A DNA stretch of 64,000 bases from Candidatus Daviesbacteria bacterium (GTDB lineage Bacteria; Patescibacteriota; Microgenomatia; Daviesbacterales; UBA10151), in NCBI GenBank assembly GCA_016198275.1, contig JACQIX010000038.1:2340-66339 (forward strand), given 5' to 3'. Shown one piece after another: positions 2,540 through 61,962 of the stretch (positions are counted from its first letter, which is position 1; each line of letters starts with the position of its first letter). A model generated the notes under the pieces. That model did no database searches and was not told where the DNA came from. It saw only the letters and a program-made list of their open reading frames with translations. The position numbers and the translations under genes are program-made.

Positions 2540-3535
2540 TTATAAGAGATAATCTATTTTCATAACCTTTTTAACTTCTGCTAAAGTTTTTTGGGCTTCT
2601 GCTTTTGCTTTTTCAGTCCCCTCATTAAGAATCTTCTTCACCAAATTTGGCTGTTTTTCATATTCAACTCTTTTTTTTCTGATTGGATCTAAGAAATTAT
2701 TTAAAACTTTGACCAGGTACTTTTTTACCTCAATATCTCCTATTTGGCCATTTCTGTATTCTTCTTTAAACTTTGCTATTTGGGCTTTATCCTCTTCTGT
2801 ACCAAAAACATCTAAGTAGATAAATACCGGATTGCCTTCCACTTCTCCTGGATCAGTGGCATGAATTCTCTTTGGGTCCGTATACATACCCATCACCTTT
2901 TTTTCTACTTCCAAAGCAGAATCACTCAGAAAAATTGCATTCCCCAAAGATTTACCCATCTTGGATTGCCCATTTGTGCCTGGCAAAGTTGGTACCTCAC
3001 CTATTAAAGGTTCAGGTATGGGAAAAACCTGCCCATAAAGGTTATTAAACTTAATAGCAATATCCCTGGCAAATTCCACATGAGCTTTTTGATCTTTTCC
3101 CACCGGTACAAGATTGGCTTTTGGCAACAAAATATCAGCTGCCATAAGAATTGGGTATTGGAACAGAGCAAAGGTGTCTTGTTCCCCTGAATCAAGCTTT
3201 TCTTTTAGAGCTGGCTGGCGCTCCAGCACCGCTCTGGAAGTGAGAGTACCCAGAAAATATGCTAATTCCAAAACTTCCGGAACTTTAGATTGTAAAACAA
3301 AGGTCACCTTCTTATGATCAAGTCCAACTGATAAATACCCGAGCATCAGACCCCTGATATTTTTTTGTAAATCAGCTGTTTTATCAAAATGAGTAGTTAA
3401 AGCATGTAAGTCTGCAATTAAAATATAAGTGTCATACTCATATTGCAGTTTAACCCTATTTTTAAGTGATCCAATATAGTTTCCCAGATGGAAACTATCT
3501 AAAGTAGGCCTGTCACCTGTCAGAATCCGTTTCAT
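2540..3535 (-). CDS. trpS: Tryptophanyl-tRNA synthetase
   Basis: MKRILTGDRPT..FHLGNYIGS is a HIGH-type motif. GKDQKAHVEF and KMGKS (KMSKS motif) are also present. Homology begins at Met50 of the tracked ORF 2540..3682, so the shorter start at 3535 is preferred. Confidence 0.85.
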   Translation of the reverse strand: MKRILTGDRPTLDSFHLGNYIGSLKNRVKLQYEYDTYILIADLHALTTHFDKTADLQKNIRGLMLGYLSVGLDHKKVTFVLQSKVPEVLELAYFLGTLTSRAVLERQPALKEKLDSGEQDTFALFQYPILMAADILLPKANLVPVGKDQKAHVEFARDIAIKFNNLYGQVFPIPEPLIGEVPTLPGTNGQSKMGKSLGNAIFLSDSALEVEKKVMGMYTDPKRIHATDPGEVEGNPVFIYLDVFGTEEDKAQIAKFKEEYRNGQIGDIEVKKYLVKVLNNFLDPIRKKRVEYEKQPNLVKKILNEGTEKAKAEAQKTLAEVKKVMKIDYLL

Positions 3536-4325: not shown

Positions 4326-5636
4326 TTAGGAAACTTTATACATAGCTCTAAGCTCTTCAGCGTATAGTAAAGACCTATTAATGAAAGCACGACCCGAGCA
4401 ATCCGGAGAGTTTACCGGAAACCTCTTTTTAGGGAATAAGATAGTAAAACCTTCTTCTGCTCTCCTATTTCCATATAACTCATGTGCTCTACCGTTATGG
4501 AGACCGGTTTGGGGATCCCTCGTGCCAACTTCCAATCTGGAATTTAGATAAGTTTCGCGGTCGTAAAATATTAATTCTAAAGGAACTTGAATATCTTCAA
4601 ACCAGGTCCTTCTCCGCGCACTAAAATTCATTTCAGCAGCCTGACCATGATCTTTACCAGTCTTATCATCTTTTTCCACCCCTACAACTCTTAACTTAGG
4701 GTCAGAATTTATAATTGAAGCTGTCTTATCTGCCAATTCTTCTGGTTTAGCACGGTCATCCATTAAGACAATGATCATCCCAATTGGGTCCAGAACACCA
4801 GTATCCATATGATTTATATCAACCACTCCACCATTTTTTTTAGCTTTGACTAAACATTTAATTACCGCCAATCTATCATCCTTTTTTCTAGGACTCGTAT
4901 ATACCATTAGTTCGTCTTTACCTACATCTATCACTTCACGTCGTATTTTACGAACGGTAGTTGGCACTGTTTTTAAATGAGCTGTAGCAGGAATTCGTTG
5001 CATTGTATTCGGGAATCCAATTACTTGATTGGTTTCATCATCATGAATAGATCCCAAGACAACTCTGCTTCCAGCCCCTACTGGACCTGAAAAATATACC
5101 TGGTTTAGTAGACGGTGAACATCAGATAATCTGGTACGGAGCCTATTATTTAACGTTCGGGAGGCAATCATTGCTGAAATATCCGTCACAAGTATATGTC
5201 TATGAGCCTCATAGGCTAAAACAGGATCAATTTGACCTTCCGGCATGGATGCTAATTCAAATAGATTACTTGGCCTATCTGAAAGTAAACTAATCTCATC
5301 TTTTAATTCCAAACCATCTAATGCTGGTAAAAGTGCGTGATAAAACTCAATAATTCCTATTGCGTGCTTTTGATTTTGCAAATAGAACTCACGAAGATCC
5401 ACATATTCTGGCAAAGAATAACGTATCCTACTAGATCCAAAAACATAATCATCAATAGCTTTAGGCGCATCCTCGGGTAAATTACCTCCAGCTCTCATTA
5501 TTTTACGAAAGCGCAAACTATCCCTGCCCCACCTATCCCTCATTAACAATGCCAACTGACGATTAGTCTCAGGCATCCGATCTTCAACTTCGGGCTGAAA
5601 CATATCTATTGTGACAGGTATTATTTTTTCTGACAT
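4326..5636 (-). CDS. Hypothetical 436-aa protein, possibly a RelA/SpoT-like nucleotidyltransferase fold (weak)
   Basis: This is a long ORF with an SD (aagga). Motifs occur in the order SPRKKDDRLAVIKCLVKAKK, VLDPIGMIIVLMDD, KDHGQAAEMNFS, PLELIFYDRETYLNS, GRAHELYGNRR. That order parallels the RxKxxxSxxxK / DxxGxRhh / GYxSxH / EhQhRT / HxxYK order of RSH synthetase domains. It looks richer in G+C codons than its neighbours. Confidence 0.6.
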   Translation of the reverse strand: MSEKIIPVTIDMFQPEVEDRMPETNRQLALLMRDRWGRDSLRFRKIMRAGGNLPEDAPKAIDDYVFGSSRIRYSLPEYVDLREFYLQNQKHAIGIIEFYHALLPALDGLELKDEISLLSDRPSNLFELASMPEGQIDPVLAYEAHRHILVTDISAMIASRTLNNRLRTRLSDVHRLLNQVYFSGPVGAGSRVVLGSIHDDETNQVIGFPNTMQRIPATAHLKTVPTTVRKIRREVIDVGKDELMVYTSPRKKDDRLAVIKCLVKAKKNGGVVDINHMDTGVLDPIGMIIVLMDDRAKPEELADKTASIINSDPKLRVVGVEKDDKTGKDHGQAAEMNFSARRRTWFEDIQVPLELIFYDRETYLNSRLEVGTRDPQTGLHNGRAHELYGNRRAEEGFTILFPKKRFPVNSPDCSGRAFINRSLLYAEELRAMYKVS

Positions 5637-5889: not shown

Positions 5890-6315
5890 TTATGATTCCA
5901 CCTCTTCCAAAAATTGAACTGGAGTAACAATTTTAATTCCCTTAAACATTCCCAATTCTAACAAATCCTGATCTCCTGTGATAATAAAATCACATCTGCC
6001 CTCAACTGCTGCCTCTAACACTTTGTTATCATCTATATCCCTGACAATATTAAGTGACTTTTTTGGCTGCACTATCAGAAAAGATTCATTTATACTGGCT
6101 TCAATACCAAGTAAATCAGGGATTAGCTTGGGAAACTTTTTATTTATAACCTCTATCAACTCTATTAAAAGTACTGGCGAGATAACACCTTTGATTTTCT
6201 CTTGTATTGCAAGTAATAGTGCTGCCCTGGGAGCACCACCAAAACCAATTGCTGAAATCAAAATATTGGTATCAAGAACAACTCTAACATGGTTTTCGCC
6301 CGTGCCTGAATTCAT
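5890..6315 (-). CDS. PIN-domain toxin (VapC-like)
   Basis: VVLDTNILISA is the first acidic motif. DNKVLEAAVEG and ITGDQDLL are typical PIN signatures. It overlaps the upstream RHH gene. Confidence 0.85.
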   Translation of the reverse strand: MNSGTGENHVRVVLDTNILISAIGFGGAPRAALLLAIQEKIKGVISPVLLIELIEVINKKFPKLIPDLLGIEASINESFLIVQPKKSLNIVRDIDDNKVLEAAVEGRCDFIITGDQDLLELGMFKGIKIVTPVQFLEEVES

Positions 6316-6535
6316 AAACTATTTCATTAATTTGATCTTCGCTCTTAATTCCCATCTTTTTCATTACTCTCTCTCCCGCTTTGAAAATACGATCCCACGA
6401 ATCTTTCCTTTCCATATATATCCTTAATGCTTCTCTTATTAACTCTGAACGATTCCGATATTCTTTTTTTGCCCTCTCATCTACTTTTTTGACTAATTCT
6501 TTTGGTAAAGAAATATTAAATGTTTGTGTTTGCAT
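6284..6535 (-). CDS. Ribbon-helix-helix (CopG/RHH) antitoxin
   Basis: FNISLPKELVKKVDERAKKEYRNRSELIREALRIYM has the RHH pattern. It lies upstream of and overlaps the PIN gene. Confidence 0.8.
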   Translation of the reverse strand: MQTQTFNISLPKELVKKVDERAKKEYRNRSELIREALRIYMERKDSWDRIFKAGERVMKKMGIKSEDQINEIVYEFRHGRKPC

Positions 6536-6566: not shown

Positions 6567-7310
6567 TCAAGGCTTTAGCTTCCTGGGCCTAACCCCATCA
6601 TATTCAATTTCTTCACCAGGTATTCTTCTAAATGGCTTTTCGCGGATATATTCTTCAAAAATGTGAGCTACCAATCCCACTACCCTGCCGATAATAAAAA
6701 ATCCTTTGCCCAATCTATAGTTAAACCCCATTTCAGAAATTACTGCTGCTATTGCCCCGTCCACATTTATGGGGATTTTTTTACCTTTTTTTTCTTCCAA
6801 AACTTTTTCCACCTCAACTGCTAATTTACAATATTCTCCCCAAAAACCTAAACTTTTTGCTTTGGCAAAAATTTGAGTAGCTCTGGGATCTTCTGTATAA
6901 ACTTTATGACCATAGCCCGGGACCCTATCACCTGATCCAATCACCTTTTCCACCAGTTTCTCTGCTGTCGAACCCATCTGTAGTAATCTAGCGCACTCCT
7001 CTATTGCCCCTCCATGAAATTCCCCTATCCCTAAAACTCCGGCAGCTACTGCTGCCTGCATCGGATTTCCGGCAGAGGCGCAGTTTCTGGCATTCGTTAC
7101 AGAAGGTGGCCCCAGACCATTGTCTATAGTGGAGATCAATATTGCATCCAGCATGGCTTTTTCTTTATCTGTAGGAAGTTCTCCTTTTAACTCTAACCAG
7201 ATTGCATCAGTAAAATTTACTTTGTCTATTAAATCAGTCACTTCGTACCCATGAATATGGGCTTCCCCGTCAATAATCCCAGCAATAGACGTTTTCCATT
7301 TTTTATCCAT
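6567..7310 (-). CDS. Citrate-synthase-like / citryl-CoA lyase domain protein (C-terminal part of ATP-citrate lyase alpha)
   Basis: The motifs are GLGPPSVTNARNCASAG, FHGGAIE and VPGYGHKVYTEDPRA. It is the last gene of the ACL-like cluster. Confidence 0.7.
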   Translation of the reverse strand: MDKKWKTSIAGIIDGEAHIHGYEVTDLIDKVNFTDAIWLELKGELPTDKEKAMLDAILISTIDNGLGPPSVTNARNCASAGNPMQAAVAAGVLGIGEFHGGAIEECARLLQMGSTAEKLVEKVIGSGDRVPGYGHKVYTEDPRATQIFAKAKSLGFWGEYCKLAVEVEKVLEEKKGKKIPINVDGAIAAVISEMGFNYRLGKGFFIIGRVVGLVAHIFEEYIREKPFRRIPGEEIEYDGVRPRKLKP

Positions 7311-7357: not shown

Positions 7358-8242
7358 TCATTTTAACAGATCTGGTATTTCATCCGGCGTCTTGGCAATT
7401 TTAACCCCAGCTGATTTTAGGCTTTCAATCTTGGACTTGTAACTTCCTTTTTTCCCATAAATTATGGCGCCTGCATGGCCTAATTTAGTGCCTTGCGGTA
7501 AGTTTTGGGCAAATAACCCTGAAATAAAGGCGACAACTTTCTTGCTGAATTTACCGTGTTTAATCATGTCTGCTGCCTCTTCTTCATAGGTTCCGCCAAT
7601 CTCTCCAAATAAAACAACTGCTTTTGTTTGTTCATCTTTTTCAAAATCGACCATGAGATCTGCAAAAGTTGAACCCACCAATACATCCCCGCCAATCCCC
7701 ACAACTGTTGATTGCCCCATTCCATTTTTAGTGAGGATCCATGATACCTCGGATGCCATCCCTCCTGATTTGGAAATTACCCCAATATTGCCCTTGTTAA
7801 AAACCCCTCTTGGGTCATCCCCTCCTATTGATCCTACTTTCCCTACTGTGGGAGAAATAATTCCAATAGATGATGGGCCAACAATCCTTACACCAGCTTT
7901 CCGGGCCAAAGCTATTGCTTTGGCAGTATCAGCAATTGGTATATGTTCAGTTAATACATTAATCAAGGGTATTTTGGCCTGTATAGCCTCTTCCATAGCA
8001 CCAAATGCTGCAAAGTTAGGCACAGCTATAAAAGAGGTGTTAATACCCGGGTGATTATCCAAAGCCTCGTTAATGGAGTTATAAACCGGAACTGCATGGA
8101 CTTCCTGCCCTCCTTTTTTGGGAGTGACGCCAGCCAGTACCTTGGTGCCATAGTTTTGCATCTGCAAGGTCACTTTAGACCCTTCTTTACCGGTTATTCC
8201 TTGTACTAGTACTTTTGTTTTTTCATTCACAAGTATTGCCAT
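7358..8242 (-). CDS. CoA-ligase alpha subunit (SucD / AclA N-terminal-like)
   Basis: MAILVNEKTKVLVQGITGKEG is a CoA-binding Rossmann motif. GHAGAII carries the phosphohistidine. The 8 codons upstream in the tracked ORF (to 8266) are encoded by the GIY-YIG flanking repeat, so the start at 8242 is preferred. Confidence 0.8.
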   Translation of the reverse strand: MAILVNEKTKVLVQGITGKEGSKVTLQMQNYGTKVLAGVTPKKGGQEVHAVPVYNSINEALDNHPGINTSFIAVPNFAAFGAMEEAIQAKIPLINVLTEHIPIADTAKAIALARKAGVRIVGPSSIGIISPTVGKVGSIGGDDPRGVFNKGNIGVISKSGGMASEVSWILTKNGMGQSTVVGIGGDVLVGSTFADLMVDFEKDEQTKAVVLFGEIGGTYEEEAADMIKHGKFSKKVVAFISGLFAQNLPQGTKLGHAGAIIYGKKGSYKSKIESLKSAGVKIAKTPDEIPDLLK

Positions 8243-8250
8243 TGTTTCCT

Positions 8251-8286
8251 TTGTCATCCCGACCAAGCGAAGCGCGTGGAGGGACC
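8251..8286. repeat. Left inverted repeat flanking the GIY-YIG cassette
   Basis: ttgtcatcccgaccaagcgaagcgcgtggagggacc. The reverse complement of 8602..8649 begins ttgtcatcccgagcgaag and ends gagggatc. Confidence 0.7.
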
Positions 8287-8291
8287 TATAA

Positions 8292-8585
8292 TCACCAGAT
8301 TAAAGTCTCAAATCTAACTTCTTCAAATCTTGGATTAAATTTGGTGATTAATAATATCTTTTTCTTTCTATTCCAGTTTTTTAGTTGTTTTTCTCTCGCT
8401 ATAGCAGTTTCTGGATCATTAAAAACCTCATAATAAATTAATCTATCTATATTGTATTTCTCAGTATATCCTTTAACCAATTTATTTTTGTGCTCCCATA
8501 ATCTTCTCACCAGATCATTTGTTATTCCTATATAAAAGTTTCCTGATTTATTCCTTAGAATATAAATGTAATATTGTTTACTCAT
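8292..8585 (-). CDS. GIY-YIG nuclease family protein (UPF0213-type)
   Basis: The N-terminus YYIYILRNKSGNFYIGITNDLVRRLWEH and the later REKQLK are GIY-YIG signatures. Confidence 0.85.
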   Translation of the reverse strand: MSKQYYIYILRNKSGNFYIGITNDLVRRLWEHKNKLVKGYTEKYNIDRLIYYEVFNDPETAIAREKQLKNWNRKKKILLITKFNPRFEEVRFETLIW

Positions 8586-8601
8586 TAACTTAGTTGAATG
8601 A

Positions 8602-8649
8602 GATCCCTCGACTTCGGGAAGTTTTACTTCCCTTCGCTCGGGATGACAA
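8602..8649. repeat. Right inverted repeat flanking the GIY-YIG cassette; contains an internal hairpin
   Basis: gatccctcgacttcgggaagttttacttcccttcgctcgggatgacaa, with the hairpin gggaagt-ttt-acttccc. It also supplies the last codons (IVIPSEGK) of the upstream gene. Confidence 0.7.
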
Positions 8650-9847
8650 TTTGTTTCTTACCGTAAGCCAGTTCTACCATGATCTTTGCCGTAGAAGTCA
8701 TTGGTGTTTCTTTGCCATAAATATGAAAATCAAAGCCTTCTTCCTTTCCTATTCTTTTCAACTCCTCAAAAGCCTCTTTATCCCTTGGTCCACCTCTTCT
8801 TATTACAATCGGATATGCAGGTCTAGGTTTTAGCTCTCTTAACCCTTCCACAAACCCCATTAAAGTTTCATAAATATCAGTAAAATTGGCAGTTCCCCCT
8901 ACAAACCAGCAACCTTTTAAGTTAGGTTTGGAAAGAACAATTTTGGTTAACTTTTTTAGCTTTTCCCTGGGAGGATTACCCGAGTGTTCCGTATAATTGG
9001 CAGGTTTTCCGCCCAAAGCAATTAAAGCATCCATATTTACAACAGATCCTCCGCCTCCCGCAGCCATCACCGCAATATCTCCGGGAAGGTCCCAATAAAC
9101 AGAACCTGAGGTTCCTCTATGATCTCCTTCATCAATTTTCCTGGCTTCAATTTCAGCCTTAGCTGGCGGCCTACCAAACAGATTCCTCTCTTCAAATTTT
9201 ACCTCTCTTCTAAAATCAGCATCATCATCTAAAATAACTTTAGCGTCCAAAGCCCAAACTTTACCATTTTTATCCAAACTTAACGGATTAATTTCTGCCA
9301 ATTCACAATCATATTTAATAAAAACTTCCCAAAGCTTTTTTGCAGTATCTACCAACTCCCCAGGTAGGTGTTTCAAAACTTCCTTATCAACCCCTATAAG
9401 AATGTTCACCTCAAAACTTTTGCTCTTACCCTTACTCTCCACTCCTGTCCCGCCTGCACCAAAAGTTAATACAGGCCCCCGAGTTTCTGTGCTATAAGAA
9501 AATGACAAGTAGTACTCTCTGACAATATCCACCATCTCCTCCACCAAAATCTTCTCTACTTTCTCGCCGTTAATAGTTCTTTGAAACAATTCTTTAATCT
9601 TAAATCTTAAATCATTAATCTTTGTTACCTTAACTATTCCCCCTGCATCAGCCCGTTTCCCTGATAAAACCTGAGCTTTTAAAACAACCTCCCCTGTCAT
9701 TCTGACTCTGAGCGAACCTGTACTGAGCGGAGTCGAAGTAGCCGAAGAGGAAGAATCTAATTTCTCAAATGTAATAAGCTGTGACTTTGGCACATTTATG
9801 CCGCAGATCTTAAAAAGTTCTTTCCCCTCAAATTCAAAAAGTTGCAT
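8624..9847 (-). CDS. ATP-grasp beta subunit, ATP-citrate lyase (AclB)-like
   Basis: The strings are GGKPANYTEHSGNPP, GGTANFTDI, IVIRRGGPRDKEA and HIYGKETPMT. As I recall them, these parallel the ACLY/AclB strings ANYGEYSGAPSE, GGSIANFTNV, FVRRGGPNYQEG and HVFGTETHMT rather than SucC. Confidence 0.75.
   Translation of the reverse strand: MQLFEFEGKELFKICGINVPKSQLITFEKLDSSSSATSTPLSTGSLRVRMTGEVVLKAQVLSGKRADAGGIVKVTKINDLRFKIKELFQRTINGEKVEKILVEEMVDIVREYYLSFSYSTETRGPVLTFGAGGTGVESKGKSKSFEVNILIGVDKEVLKHLPGELVDTAKKLWEVFIKYDCELAEINPLSLDKNGKVWALDAKVILDDDADFRREVKFEERNLFGRPPAKAEIEARKIDEGDHRGTSGSVYWDLPGDIAVMAAGGGGSVVNMDALIALGGKPANYTEHSGNPPREKLKKLTKIVLSKPNLKGCWFVGGTANFTDIYETLMGFVEGLRELKPRPAYPIVIRRGGPRDKEAFEELKRIGKEEGFDFHIYGKETPMTSTAKIMVELAYGKKQIVIPSEGK
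9693..9757. repeat. GC-rich dispersed repeat copy embedded in frame in the AclB-like gene
   Basis: cctgtcattctgactctgagcgaacctgtactgagcggagtcgaagtagccgaagaggaagaatc shares tgtcatYcYga, gagcgaa, gtcgaag and gaaRaatc with the GIY-YIG flanks. It encodes DSSSSATSTPLSTGSLRVRMTG. Confidence 0.55.
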
Positions 9848-13117: not shown

Positions 13118-13783
13118 TTAGCTTAAACACCCCTTTTGGAAGTAAGCAGGTTGTGCTGCCTCAGAATCCCTGGGTTTAAAACTTGGGTCATTAGGATTAA
13201 ATGTTCTAAGGCCTTCAAATCTTCCTTGCAAGTTTCCACTACCATCTCTTGTTATGTAATAAGTATGCATCTCTTTATAAGTAGTCAGACAATCTTCACC
13301 TGGTAATTTAAATCCTAAAGAGATTAAGTATTCTTCTCTGGGACCAAAACGAATAACAGGAAATTTTCTAACTGGACCTGCTTTCTCCAATGTTGGAGCG
13401 CAAAAGATTATACCTGGATTGGTGGATAAAACTTGGTCACGTTCATCGCTAATTAACCTAAATTCAGCGTCTTTTCTCAAAATAGTATCCAATACTAAAC
13501 TACCGCCCTGACGAGCTGGATCAAAAGAGAATTTTACAGCCTCTAAAAATGGATGTTGTAGAAAATCAATTCTTCCATCTGTTAATACACCGTTTGCCTC
13601 TGTTAAATCATAGGGACCTTGATTTGGACCATTACCTATAGATCTTATAGCGACAGTTGGCGTGAGAGAGGGCCGCTCAGGAAGTCTGCCACAAGCAGCC
13701 AGTAATAAAAATACACCAGCTCTGAAGCTAGTTGTAAAAAAATCTCTTCTACTTACTCTTTCCACATTTTCAATATAATACAA
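13118..13783 (-). CDS. Hypothetical exported lipoprotein with a twin-arginine-like signal
   Basis: The N-terminus reads SRRDFFTTSFRAGVFLLLAAC-G, which combines a TAT-like SRRxFF motif with a lipobox. Confidence 0.55.
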   Translation of the reverse strand: MYYIENVERVSRRDFFTTSFRAGVFLLLAACGRLPERPSLTPTVAIRSIGNGPNQGPYDLTEANGVLTDGRIDFLQHPFLEAVKFSFDPARQGGSLVLDTILRKDAEFRLISDERDQVLSTNPGIIFCAPTLEKAGPVRKFPVIRFGPREEYLISLGFKLPGEDCLTTYKEMHTYYITRDGSGNLQGRFEGLRTFNPNDPSFKPRDSEAAQPAYFQKGCLS

Positions 13784-14009
13784 GTGTAGTTTTGCCTTTA
13801 GTTGTTTTAAAATATTCTTCTCTTCTTATGGCATCCTTTTTACTTAAATATGCTTCATAGAAGATTAGCTTAAGTGGCATATAGCCTTTCGTAGATAAAT
13901 TTTCTCCATTATTATGACTTTTAAATCTTTTTCTTAAATCACCTGTGGATCCTACATAAATCCAATCACGGCTTAAACTTTGGAGTACATAAACATAATA
14001 GAATTTCAC
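13770..14009 (-). CDS. GIY-YIG nuclease family protein
   Basis: FYYVYVLQSLSRDWIYVGSTGDLRKRFKSHNNG is the N-terminal signature, and RREEYFK follows later. Confidence 0.8.
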   Translation of the reverse strand: MKFYYVYVLQSLSRDWIYVGSTGDLRKRFKSHNNGENLSTKGYMPLKLIFYEAYLSKKDAIRREEYFKTTKGKTTLVLY

Positions 14010-14021
14010 ACCTCTATCTTA

Positions 14022-14108
14022 CCAAAAAGAAAGGGGCGCACCATACGGTGCACCCCTCACTTACCTTCGTTGCAGGCTGCTGTGCAGTCATGCACCATTC
14101 GGTGCATG
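14022..14108 (-). terminator. Pair of GC-rich hairpins, the distal one followed by a T-run on the minus strand
   Basis: The hairpins are ggggcgcacc-atac-ggtgcacccc and catgcacc-attc-ggtgcatg. After the first, the minus strand continues ttcttttt. They lie downstream of the gene 14169..14750. Confidence 0.5.
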
Positions 14109-14168
14109 GTTGCGGGGGCGGGAGGCTGTTAGAACTTACATTTATGCCTGATACTGATGTTATTATGT

Positions 14169-14788: not shown

Positions 14789-15060
14789 TTGCGGGGGTGG
14801 GAATCGAACCCACTACCTCAAGATTATGCTCCGTTTTGCATTACTGCAAGGGTAGGACTATATCATCATCCTGTTCCGTACGGTACAGGAGTCCGGCGTG
14901 TAGTCTCTACGGGATCCTGAGTATTAATCGAAGGACTTCCCTCGGTATTACCTAGGTATTTAAACATTTAGGTTTCACCGATATAGCCAGATTCTCACAA
15001 AAAATTACTTTCTTGCGGGCCCAAACTGAGCCTTGTGTGCAGCCTTTACACTTCCCCGCG
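14789..15060 (-). tRNA. tRNA(CAU) gene (Met/fMet/Ile2 type) interrupted by a group I intron
   Basis: The 5' exon is 15060..15029 and the 3' exon is 14828..14789. Joined, they give a 72-nt cloverleaf with anticodon loop CUCAUAA, T arm GUGGG-UUCGAUU-CCCAC, and acceptor CGCGGGG/CCCCGCA with a C1xA72 mismatch. Confidence 0.8.
14829..15028 (-). ncRNA. Group I intron (IC3-like, about 200 nt), no ORF
   Basis: It is preceded by U and ends in G (..AAAACGGAG). It contains GGUGAAACCUAAAU and GUAGAGACUACACG, which closely match the core strings of the Azoarcus and Anabaena tRNA introns as I recall them. Exon GGCU can pair with intron GGCC to form P1 with a U.G pair. Confidence 0.75.
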
Positions 15061-17036: not shown

Positions 17037-19379
17037 CTAAAGTCTGGCCCTTGATGCTATCTCCCCCTCCACTTGAACCACATCTCTGCCATATTTTAAG
17101 CGGGATAGTTCTCTGATGGCCTGGCCGATAGCTGGTTTTAACATTGCCTTCCACTTTTTCATATCCTTGGTAGTATCCAAGGAAAACGGCACCACCGGCT
17201 CACCATTGACTATGGTTTTAATATAGGCATGAGGGGATTCAATGTTGACTAGATCCGCCTCTGCAAAGGTTGGTGAAAATTCATGCTGAAGGTAATTAGC
17301 ATCTGTCACTCCTACTCTGAAAGCCAGCACAGTGCCCACATTGCCAAAAACAGCATTTTTTAAATCTTCACCAATTTGGCCGATAAACTGGTTAGCCACA
17401 ATCAGATTTAATCTGTACTTTCTGGCCTCAGATAAAATATCAGCGAAAGTGTCTGTAGCAAAGTTTTGAAACTCATCAACGTATAAGTAAAAATCACGCC
17501 TTTGCTCTATCTGCATGTCTGTCCGAGACATGGCAGCAGCCAAAATTTTGGGGACCAGAATCAGGCCTAAGAAGTTGGAGTTTTCCTCTCCGATCTTTCC
17601 TTTAGACAGGTTCATGATTAAAATTTTCCCTTCATCCATCACTTTGCGAAGATCAAATGATGATTTTGACTGACCAATGATATTTCTTATCATCTTATTG
17701 GTGACAAAACGGCCAAATTTGGAAACCGTGTAATCCAGCACCTCTGATTTATGAAAATCAGTAGTTTGGGCGATTTGATCTGTCCAGTAACGCCGAACAA
17801 CCGGGTCAGCCACTTTTGGCAGTAATTCCCTAACAAAGTTAGCATCAGTCATAATTCTGACTACTTCTACAAAAGTTGCTCCTTCTGAAGACATGGCAGT
17901 CAGCATGGCATTTCTAACTCCATGTTCAAAACGGGGGCCAATAATCCCTGTTTTATTAGGGTCAAATAATTTGTACATCAGCCCGATAATGGAAGCCACC
18001 ACAAAATGTCTCTGCTGTTCGGAATATGCTTCCAACATGTTCAAACCAAAAGGACGAGTCATATCCGAGGGGTCAAAATAAATCACATCTTCGGCCCGGG
18101 ACGGCGGGATGAGTTGCAACATCTCCTCTGCCGCGTCTCCGTGCGGGTCAATAAAACAAAGCCCTTTGCCTGCCAAAACATCTTGTAACATCAAAGTTTT
18201 CAGCAGTTCTGATTTACCGGTGCCTGTCCGGCCGATAATATACATGTGTTTGCGCCTGTCATCTTCTGACAGATAAACCGGCCGACCCACCCCCCTGAAA
18301 ACTGACCTGCCTAAATACAAACCACTGACCGGAATCTTTTCCGGCGCCGGGGCCCGCTTGGATGACAACCAGCTAATGTAGGGTGTTTCAATGGATTTAT
18401 TTGGAAAATGAAACACTGTGGCCAGTTCATCTGCTGTCAAAACCGACAGTTTGGCAAACTTAGGCATATAGCGATAAATAAAATCAGTCAAAAATCCTTT
18501 TTCAGAATAAACTTTATCAGCGCTGAATGAATTGTAGGGCCCGCTAAATTGTTCAAAGGCGGATTTGATATTGGTTAAATGAGCCTTGGCAAGTTCCGAA
18601 GATTCAGATGAAACCACTATTCTAATTACTGTTTCAAAACCGCTTCTGGTAATTTTACCTTCCACTGCTTCCAATTGTTTGGCATCAGGGGCAGGTTTAG
18701 GATTTTTTTCATCCCCGGGTTCTTTTTCTTTTTTCACCCAATTTTTACCCAAGTTTTTCCAGCTGTTATCTGCAGGAGAAATCATCATCTGCACTGCCGC
18801 TCCTTCACTTAACTGCATCTTGGCCAAAGCTGAAGTCAAAGCTGAGAGCGGATCTGTTGGTAAATCCCGGAAAGTTTTAATAGGAAAGTAGTCTGCGCTT
18901 TTCAACTTCAGTTGAGCATAGGCTGTTTGCGAGTTTTCAGAAAAAATATTATATTCCGGCGCTTCTTTAATTTCAGCATCCGGGTAAGCCCCGTGAATTT
19001 GTTTTTCTACTAAATCCTGGTGAGATTGATGGCAGGAAACAAAAAACCTGATAGATTCATGCAAGGCCACAATTTCAAAAGATAAATGAGGTTGGAGCTT
19101 GAAAGCAGATAACATTCCTCCGCTCGAGCGGAGCGAAGCAAAGGTGGCAAATAATTGCTCTGAGGCGTCAATTTTAACTTCATTGCCTCTGGGAACTTTG
19201 ATCTGCAGCAGGACAAATTGCAAAGATTTTTTCTCTCTATCTTTATATTTAATCCAGCCGACAAAAAATTTTTTTAAAAAAAACCCTAGCCCCACCAACA
19301 GTGATAAGACTGCCAAAATTCCCACCACTGCTACTATCAAACTAATAAAATCAATTCCTCCGTTTTGTGTTACTTCCAT
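17037..19379 (-). CDS. Membrane-anchored P-loop ATPase of the TraD/TraG/VirD4 (type IV coupling protein)-like family
   Basis: It has an N-terminal TM segment, Walker A IIGRTGTGKSELL, then CFIDPHGD and Walker B-like FYLYVDEFQNF. Confidence 0.65.
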   Translation of the reverse strand: MEVTQNGGIDFISLIVAVVGILAVLSLLVGLGFFLKKFFVGWIKYKDREKKSLQFVLLQIKVPRGNEVKIDASEQLFATFASLRSSGGMLSAFKLQPHLSFEIVALHESIRFFVSCHQSHQDLVEKQIHGAYPDAEIKEAPEYNIFSENSQTAYAQLKLKSADYFPIKTFRDLPTDPLSALTSALAKMQLSEGAAVQMMISPADNSWKNLGKNWVKKEKEPGDEKNPKPAPDAKQLEAVEGKITRSGFETVIRIVVSSESSELAKAHLTNIKSAFEQFSGPYNSFSADKVYSEKGFLTDFIYRYMPKFAKLSVLTADELATVFHFPNKSIETPYISWLSSKRAPAPEKIPVSGLYLGRSVFRGVGRPVYLSEDDRRKHMYIIGRTGTGKSELLKTLMLQDVLAGKGLCFIDPHGDAAEEMLQLIPPSRAEDVIYFDPSDMTRPFGLNMLEAYSEQQRHFVVASIIGLMYKLFDPNKTGIIGPRFEHGVRNAMLTAMSSEGATFVEVVRIMTDANFVRELLPKVADPVVRRYWTDQIAQTTDFHKSEVLDYTVSKFGRFVTNKMIRNIIGQSKSSFDLRKVMDEGKILIMNLSKGKIGEENSNFLGLILVPKILAAAMSRTDMQIEQRRDFYLYVDEFQNFATDTFADILSEARKYRLNLIVANQFIGQIGEDLKNAVFGNVGTVLAFRVGVTDANYLQHEFSPTFAEADLVNIESPHAYIKTIVNGEPVVPFSLDTTKDMKKWKAMLKPAIGQAIRELSRLKYGRDVVQVEGEIASRARL

Positions 19380-61888: not shown

Positions 61889-61962
61889 AATATAGGTATT
61901 TTAACATTGTTTGATTGCCAAGGGATATACCATATGGTATATCCCTTGCAATGACGAGGAAA

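Follow-up and report, generated by a model that had tools for sequence, protein, structure and literature searches.

A probable SRM-ssn-SRM cassette inserted in an ATP-citrate-lyase-like operon of Candidatus Daviesbacteria

Background

Ssn proteins are single-domain GIY-YIG nucleases of about 94 amino acids (CDD cd10448) associated with short hairpin repeats (Chenal et al. 2025, Nat Commun, PMC11893778). The repeat is called NTS in Neisseria (CGTCATTCCCGCGMAVGCGGGAATCYRG) and, more generally, Ssn-related motif (SRM). Ssn binds the hairpin only as single-stranded DNA (ssDNA), and its cut lies upstream of the repeat by a few nucleotides; cleavage depends most on the three bases that precede the palindrome, and binding most on the C that follows. 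SsnA does not bind RNA, and characterised members are inactive on double-stranded DNA (dsDNA). An SRM lies near 71% of Ssn homologues, and 42% have one on both sides. SsnA modulates transformation and its domestication has been proposed, while the idea that NTS-ssnA-NTS is a mobile element has been raised only as a hypothesis (PMC11893778). Here, a 399-bp region of Candidatus Daviesbacteria contig JACQIX010000038.1, in which a small GIY-YIG gene lies between inverted hairpin repeats inside an operon, is compared with this and other systems. The whole 64-kb stretch of DNA analysed is referred to as the window.

The family was described only in 2025. Repeats of similar build were known earlier: CGTC-tagged repetitive extragenic palindromes (REPs), including the Rickettsia palindromic elements, for which no dedicated enzyme was found (Di Nocera et al. 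2013, PMC3733652).

Results and discussion

The nuclease belongs by sequence to the Ssn family

The region at 8251..8649 (minus strand) is very probably an SRM-ssn-SRM cassette, that is, an ssn gene between its cognate hairpins, inverted with YGTCAT outermost and inserted as a single unit between beta and alpha in an ATP-citrate-lyase (ACL)-like operon. The ssn gene (8292..8585, minus strand) encodes a 97-aa single-domain GIY-YIG nuclease (Pfam PF01541, E 7e-19). The domain spans residues 4-76; there is no other Pfam match and no transposase domain. The catalytic domain is followed by only about 20 residues and, according to Pfam, a C-terminal DNA-binding domain is absent.

The cassette protein is 41% identical over 93 aa, end to end, to the 94-aa SsnA orthologue of N. 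gonorrhoeae (E 6e-27), which is its sole match in the gonococcal chromosome and is embedded among nine canonical NTS repeats. This gonococcal protein was taken as the orthologue of meningococcal SsnA from its context and length; the chromosome used as reference is listed, mislabelled, as a plasmid in PLSDB. Mutation of Y6, Y17 or E64 abolishes cleavage by SsnA (PMC11893778), and these residues align with Y8, Y18 and E65 of the cassette protein, which are invariant in 35 relatives. Much weaker matches (27-37 bits) were obtained with the UPF0213 structures 1ZG2 and 1YWL, and the only NCBIfam match, to a group I intron endonuclease model, was below threshold. The protein is 100% identical to one annotated in Candidatus Daviesbacteria, and the identical protein is encoded on five contigs, all with the same locus.

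Each cassette end is itself a hairpin

The 12-mer TTGTCATCCCGA occurs exactly twice in the window, at 8251-8262 (plus strand) and 8638-8649 (minus strand), inverted and 375 nt apart. By our arithmetic, about 0.008 further exact copies would be expected on 128 kb (both strands). A first-pass annotation, made from the letters of the window alone, had described imperfect inverted repeats at 8251..8286 and 8602..8649, identical in their first 12 nt, sharing gcgaag and gaggga blocks and enclosing a GIY-YIG gene. All of this holds: the plus strand at 8251-8286 reads ttgtcatcccgaccaagcgaagcgcgtggagggacc, the reverse complement of 8602-8649 reads ttgtcatcccgagcgaagggaagtaaaacttcccgaagtcgagggatc, both blocks are common to the two, and the 12-nt inverted repeat is perfect, with TTGTCAT at both outer ends of the cassette. 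What had been missed is that each arm is a stem-loop in its own right and not merely half of a terminal inverted repeat.

Both arms fold as hairpins, as RNA and as DNA. The upstream SRM (8602..8649, minus strand) reads TTGTCATCCCGAGCGAAG[GGAAGTAAAACTTCCC]GAAGTCGAGGGATC on the gene strand, with an ATCCC/GGGAT closing stem and a nested 7-bp hairpin; its RNA fold has an energy of -20 kcal/mol (z -3.1) and both stems are kept in the DNA fold. The downstream SRM (8251..8286, plus strand), in inverted orientation, reads TTGTCATCCCGACCAAGCGAAGCGCGTGGAGGGACC on the plus strand and has a DNA fold of -8.4 kcal/mol (z -2.9). Read on the strand that carries GTCAT, the plan of an arm is T-GTC, a stem ATCCC (which begins with AT), a loop with the nested hairpin, a GGGAT half-stem and then C. 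The two GTCAT tags face outward, on opposite strands. The downstream SRM is nearly identical to the upstream SRM of a related cassette between thyA and folA (locus L014), and the motif of the upstream SRM is found in the same position and orientation in homologous loci. At Rfam gathering thresholds there was no match in the cassette, and elsewhere in the window only tRNAs and a group I intron were matched.

The same layout recurs in unrelated operons

Close homologues, 72-74% identical in protein, lie between thyA and folA in one case and between a tsf-linked open reading frame (ORF) and frr in another. Both cassettes share the strand of their operon and repeat the layout of the window cassette. 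In a three-way DNA alignment, similarity starts at TGTCATCCCGA and ends at CGGGATGAC (between TGTCAT and ATGACA), and the flanks are unrelated. Because similarity across operons starts and ends exactly at the hairpin tags, the boundaries of the element can be set at 8251-8649 (399 bp).

A wider sample comprised 80 metagenome loci at 46-64% identity, 67 of which extended 150 nt or more to either side of the gene. Hairpins were detected as GTCAY followed by a 5-nt stem with its complement no more than 75 nt away. A forward SRM upstream and a reverse one downstream, with GTCAT outermost, were present in 35 of the 67 homologous loci, and the median element length in these 35 was 392 bp. In 53 of the 67, one or more copies were present in the expected orientation, against a chance expectation of about 2% per flank. 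The first-pass annotation had allowed that the motif might be a generic REP-like repeat with no relation to GIY-YIG genes. The first half of that is borne out, as the motif belongs to a REP-like family also found away from nuclease genes, but the link to these nucleases is strong and specific.

The base after the palindrome, which the detector leaves free, is C in 88/88 copies, and T precedes GTC in 77%. When the C was made a requirement, the related loci gave 436 hairpins compared with 28 expected. Stem types vary by locus and include ATCCC, ATTCC, ATTGC, ATTCT, ATGCT and ACCCT, among others. Covariation counts for stem positions 1-5 would be circular, because the detector requires those pairs, and were not used as evidence of pairing.

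One Curtissbacteria contig (L006/L024) carries two Ssn paralogues, 55% identical, at 3001-3285 and 5161-5457. Each is flanked by its own stem type (ATCCC vs ATTGC), with repeats at 5112-5160 and 5480-5620. Such paralogue-specific stems match the enzyme/repeat pairs reported for Ssn (PMC11893778). On the same contig, extra copies of the second stem type adjoin an apparent structured RNA gene.

Outward-facing SRM pairs that enclose no gene are also frequent: 492 kb of Ssn loci hold 82, and 117 kb of ACL loci hold 5. Among 17 resolved contexts, both neighbours were co-directional with the ssn gene in nine, which is the commonest arrangement and no rule. An upstream ORF running into the hairpin, as in the window, is unusual (1/17).

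The best plasmid homologue (54% identical) lies on Planktothrix agardhii plasmid NZ_LR882964.1 at 18847-19131 (L050). Its neighbours are an MmeI-type restriction-modification gene on one side and drmA, the DISARM helicase gene, on the other, with tandem GTCATTCTGAG half-repeats downstream, which places this Ssn gene in a defence-island context.

The cassette interrupts the junction of the beta and alpha genes

The operon lies entirely on the minus strand. Its first gene (9847..8624) encodes a 407-aa protein like the beta subunit of ATP-citrate lyase or citryl-CoA synthetase (Pfam ATP-grasp_2 and Citrate_bind). It is followed by ssn (8585..8292), a gene for a CoA-ligase alpha-like subunit (8242..7358) and one for a protein resembling the C-terminal part of citrate synthase (7310..6567), the last two also assigned by Pfam. 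The first-pass annotation had placed the cassette between two genes of an ACL-like operon, and the domain assignments agree. It had also proposed a comparison with orthologous operons lacking the insertion. Of 20 such operons, none has a GIY-YIG gene, and in eight the beta and alpha genes overlap, the alpha ATG lying inside the beta "AYG" codons. This overlap is probably the ancestral state, and the cassette is a discrete insertion that very probably entered as a unit.

A Daviesbacteria metagenome-assembled genome (L031) has, at the same junction (...GGGAAACAA|TTGTCATCCTGA...), two outward SRMs 36 nt apart and no gene between them, its beta tail KQLSS* being read from the hairpin. In other orthologues the beta/alpha junction holds unrelated small palindromic inserts (L030, L042, L043, L044, L045, L046 and L038) or a larger gene (L034); L030 and L045 share a 75-nt element, GTTCTCC...GGAGAAGTAC, which is read into the beta tail. 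Because varied, unrelated inserts occur there, the junction is a recurrent insertion hot spot. Other small genes (toxin-antitoxin-like and methyltransferase) are found between the alpha and citrate-synthase-like genes of L030 and L031.

The insertion has left traces in both neighbouring genes, much as the first-pass annotation had suggested when it credited the repeats with the last codons of the upstream gene and with spurious N-terminal codons on the downstream one. The beta ORF ends ...KKQIVIPSEGK. Its last eight codons (IVIPSEGK) and TAA stop lie inside the upstream repeat, the stop falling in the loop. Beta orthologues end in ...LAYGK plus 0-5 residues, and this comparison of C termini shows that the tail has been replaced by residues encoded in the SRM. 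The alpha ORF is called by the ORF finder from a TTG at 8266. Since orthologues align from the ATG at 8242 (MAILVNEK...), the codons upstream of 8242 are spurious and this ATG is the true start. The outer end of the downstream SRM abuts AAAGGAAACA, the ribosome-binding region of the alpha gene, and alpha is presumably now translated by way of this site next to the cassette.

The cassette-free beta/alpha junction, made in silico, reads ...AAGAAACAAA|AGGAAACAATGG.... The cassette is exactly 399 nt long and the alpha ATG is in the beta frame; precise removal would give a beta-alpha fusion through KKQKET, with no stop. Such an in-frame fusion has a one-in-three chance of arising by coincidence and is mentioned as a curiosity only.

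Comparison with described systems

The cassette is a new example of a known system and not a new system. It shares with the Neisseria locus a single-domain GIY-YIG protein of about 95 aa with the catalytic triad kept, and a gene flanked on both sides by hairpins of 25-50 nt with a 5' GTC tag and a palindrome that starts with AT and is followed by C. Paralogues with repeat variants of their own are likewise common to the two. Membership of the Ssn/SRM system is supported by every testable feature except the published SRM search pattern, which is discussed below. There are also differences. The window comes from a member of the Candidate Phyla Radiation (CPR; Patescibacteria), and neither these bacteria nor insertion into operons is mentioned in PMC11893778. 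The window stem is ATCCC with nested inner hairpins, and T precedes GTC. There is one SRM on each side with its tag outward, inside an operon, whereas the Neisseria locus has dense arrays.

The CGTC repeats (PMC3733652) are similarly short palindromes that carry an unpaired (C)GTC tag at one of their ends, and inverted dimers are a frequent arrangement. Like the Rickettsia palindromic elements, they are sometimes found in frame within genes, for which the window and two other beta genes offer parallels (9696-9757, L038 and L039; see below). Here, by contrast, the repeats bracket a GIY-YIG gene, and the tag in this clade is mostly TGTC. From the shared tag and architecture, SRMs may well belong to a super-family of CGTC-tagged REPs.

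REPtrons and REPINs are the closest functional analogy, the resemblance being one of architecture only. In both, a single gene is bracketed by inverted hairpin repeats that its product recognises as ssDNA (predicted in the present case), gene-less inverted pairs are scattered elsewhere, and target sites are not duplicated. The enzyme here, however, is a GIY-YIG nuclease and not an HUH/Y1 tyrosine transposase (RAYT), and the tag is GTC instead of GTAG. To our knowledge, no strand-transfer chemistry has been described for a GIY-YIG nuclease, unlike the HUH/Y1 transposases.

The 'peel and paste' elements of the IS200/IS605 group also have subterminal hairpins recognised in ssDNA, cleavage beside the hairpin and no duplications. 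In them, the ends are not inverted and occupy the same strand, and the enzyme is the HUH protein TnpA. As the two tags of the cassette are on opposite strands, one to each, any one strand could be cut only at one of the cassette ends, so that excision in the IS200/IS605 manner is not possible.

A possible mechanism

By homology with the characterised Neisseria and Wolbachia enzymes, the cassette protein would bind its hairpin only when the DNA is single-stranded, recognising both the GTC tag and the C that follows the palindrome. Cleavage would be expected in the adjoining host DNA, a few nucleotides to the 5' side of the tag and immediately beyond either end of the cassette; with outward tags, each strand would receive one nick. 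The system is very probably the GIY-YIG counterpart of a REPtron, its repeats also spreading as solo copies and as gene-less inverted pairs.

The first-pass annotation had suggested that the insertion may supply signals for read-through and translational restart. A scan of the gene strand at 8250-8650 found no promoter-like or terminator-like site in the cassette, and neither hairpin stem is followed by the T run of an intrinsic terminator. For these reasons ssn is probably transcribed with the operon, although the scan itself speaks neither for nor against read-through.

Related cassettes in other operons, cassette-free orthologues and scattered gene-less pairs argue that the cassette and its repeats have moved in the past. 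SRM-ssn-SRM cassettes could be, or could recently have been, autonomous mobile elements with a new mechanism, in which the single-strand nuclease nicks host DNA outside the two hairpins, on opposite strands, and the cassette is copied elsewhere. We put this forward tentatively, as a possibility well short of probable. On such a scheme, 'homing' into gene-less SRM pairs as empty sites could take place, and the pair in L031 occupies the exact site of the window cassette. That gene-less pairs are landing sites for a full copy is a speculation with which L031 is consistent. In streamlined CPR genomes the elements would live within operons on host transcription, their hairpins being absorbed into coding sequence.

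Weighing the interpretations

Several observations weigh against reading the region as an inserted Ssn/SRM element. Target-site duplications were no more frequent in the 35 elements with both SRMs than in a control of shuffled, unrelated flank pairs. The outward layout is not universal, since the NTS copies closest to the gene in Neisseria have GTCAT pointing inward, towards it. The downstream SRM reads GGGACC instead of GGGATC and has thereby lost its outermost stem pair, with the following C kept. Only two copies of the cassette stem type occur in the 64 kb, giving no sign of proliferation in this genome. A cassette-free allele was sought in close relatives by three routes and was not found: exact look-up of the downstream citrate-synthase-like protein returned no record, no relative of the beta protein exceeded 77% identity, and the dihydrofolate reductase beside the thyA-folA cassette had no relative between 70% and 99%. 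Finally, the published SRM pattern, HGTCWYN(0-2)YYVSBRHN(0-5)WNVSBRGN(0-2)RNCYNB, had no match in the window, while a canonical NTS control was matched; the published NTS pattern had none in the window either. The SRM pattern fails on both copies because of an A where C, G or T is required and because of loops longer than allowed. It is a search tool derived from 29 genomes (PMC11893778) and matches 40 but misses 396 of the 436 hairpins around related genes, so its failure here reflects a limit of the pattern and not exclusion from the family.

A direct repeat, GAAACAA, on both sides of the window cassette was considered as a target-site duplication; it is unsupported by other copies, there being no excess in the 35 elements.

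The Ssn/SRM pair could instead be a domesticated, immobile host module, long inherited at this site and serving the host, for example by restricting or shaping incoming ssDNA during natural transformation. What has been proposed for SsnA in Neisseria favours this, as does the presence in the window of a single nuclease gene of Ssn type with two SRMs of its stem type; moreover, the five contigs with the identical protein share one locus and no close relative without the cassette was found. Long residence accords less well with related cassettes in unrelated operons of other CPR genomes, where similarity ends exactly at the hairpin tags, with the lack of a cassette in most orthologous operons, or with gene-less pairs at many sites, including coding regions. 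We consider domestication a possible, if doubtful, account. The first-pass annotation had preferred a small transposon-like or MITE-like (miniature inverted-repeat transposable element) cassette, and part of that description stands: the insertion is discrete, its ends are defined by perfect 12-nt inverted repeats, and gene-less, MITE-like pairs exist. A classical cut-and-paste transposon, with its terminal repeats bound as dsDNA by a transposase and the GIY-YIG gene as cargo or as the transposase itself, is nevertheless very unlikely, given that no transposase domain was found, that target-site duplications do not exceed the control, and that the termini are conserved hairpins with a strand-specific tag belonging to a family that cleaves ssDNA and is inactive on dsDNA. 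As neither duplications nor a transposase were found, the term transposon is unproven.

Insertion between conserved, co-oriented housekeeping genes (ACL beta/alpha, thyA/folA and beside frr), together with the nine of 17 contexts that are co-directional on both sides, would suit a free-standing GIY-YIG homing endonuclease like phage Seg, which would cut the cassette-free double-stranded junction and be copied in during repair. The catalytic domain is also shared with Seg and I-TevI-like enzymes. Those, however, are proteins of 200 or more aa with a DNA-binding domain; they cut dsDNA and their genes have no flanking hairpin repeats. The cassette protein has 97 aa and no such domain, its own recognition hairpins bracket the gene, and its closest characterised relative cuts only ssDNA beside a hairpin, all of which make homing of this kind quite unlikely. 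It is highly improbable that the hairpins are RNA-level elements, such as terminators, mRNA stabilisers or signals for translational coupling, that flank the gene by happenstance. Although both fold well as RNA, the beta stop codon lies in the upstream one and the downstream one borders directly on the ribosome-binding site of alpha, there is no T/U tract after either stem and no terminator-like site in the cassette. With outward GTC tags on opposite strands only one copy is 'sense' in the mRNA, and the repeats are specifically associated with Ssn genes, whose characterised member SsnA does not bind RNA. Effects of the hairpins on RNA are possible as a side consequence.

Implications

For the Ssn/SRM cassette, the value of the finding lies in comparative hints on mobility, a broader repeat vocabulary and consequences for annotation. 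The locus and its relatives bear on mobility through bounded cassettes at unrelated operon junctions, cassette-free orthologues, a gene-less pair at the same site and the lack of target-site duplications. In CPR bacteria, both Ssn nucleases and their repeats are common. Genome surveys that use the published SRM pattern will undercount them, because fewer than one in ten of the hairpins around this branch of Ssn are recognised. In annotation, SRM hairpins account for unusual C-terminal tails, falsely extended N termini and in-frame insertions in the genes next to them.

Other repeats and genes in the window

An eroded SRM-like element recognised by the detector (GTCATTCTGA...GAAGAATC; 9696..9757, plus strand) lies in frame inside the beta gene, where it encodes DSSSSATSTPLSTGSLRVRMT. 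Some orthologues have this insert and others lack it, and it folds no better than shuffled sequences. SRM-type hairpins or pairs are also in frame in the beta genes of L038 (3035-3115) and L039 (1283-1368), encoding ...VIPS...RNDK and ...VIPAK...GMTS, respectively. A solo SRM-like hairpin of another stem type (CGTCATTGC...GCAATC; 61913..61955, minus strand; in full CGTCATTGCAAGGGATATACCATATGGTATATCCCTTGGCAATC) has a DNA fold of -14.4 kcal/mol (z -7.8). It stands beside two tRNA genes, with no nuclease gene nearby.

Immediately downstream of the operon, a pair of genes for a ribbon-helix-helix (CopG-like) antitoxin and a PIN-domain toxin occupies 5890-6535 (minus strand). Beyond it lies a 436-aa ORF without a Pfam match (4326-5636, minus strand).

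A group I intron is present at 14834-15038 (minus strand; Rfam RF00028, 80.6 bits). No tRNA was called by ARAGORN at this site; the intron probably interrupts a tRNA gene, since its flank translates on the opposite strand as GIEPTTS, typical of the 3' half of a tRNA.

The window holds a second small GIY-YIG gene (13770-14009, minus strand), whose 79-aa product (PF01541, E 1.6e-15) is 35% identical to the cassette protein. Ahead of it, at 14030-14135, are GC-rich hairpins of a different kind (ATGCACCGAATGGTGCAT and GGGGTGCACCGTATGGTGCGCCCC) without a GTCAT tag, and gene and hairpins may represent another pairing of nuclease and repeat.

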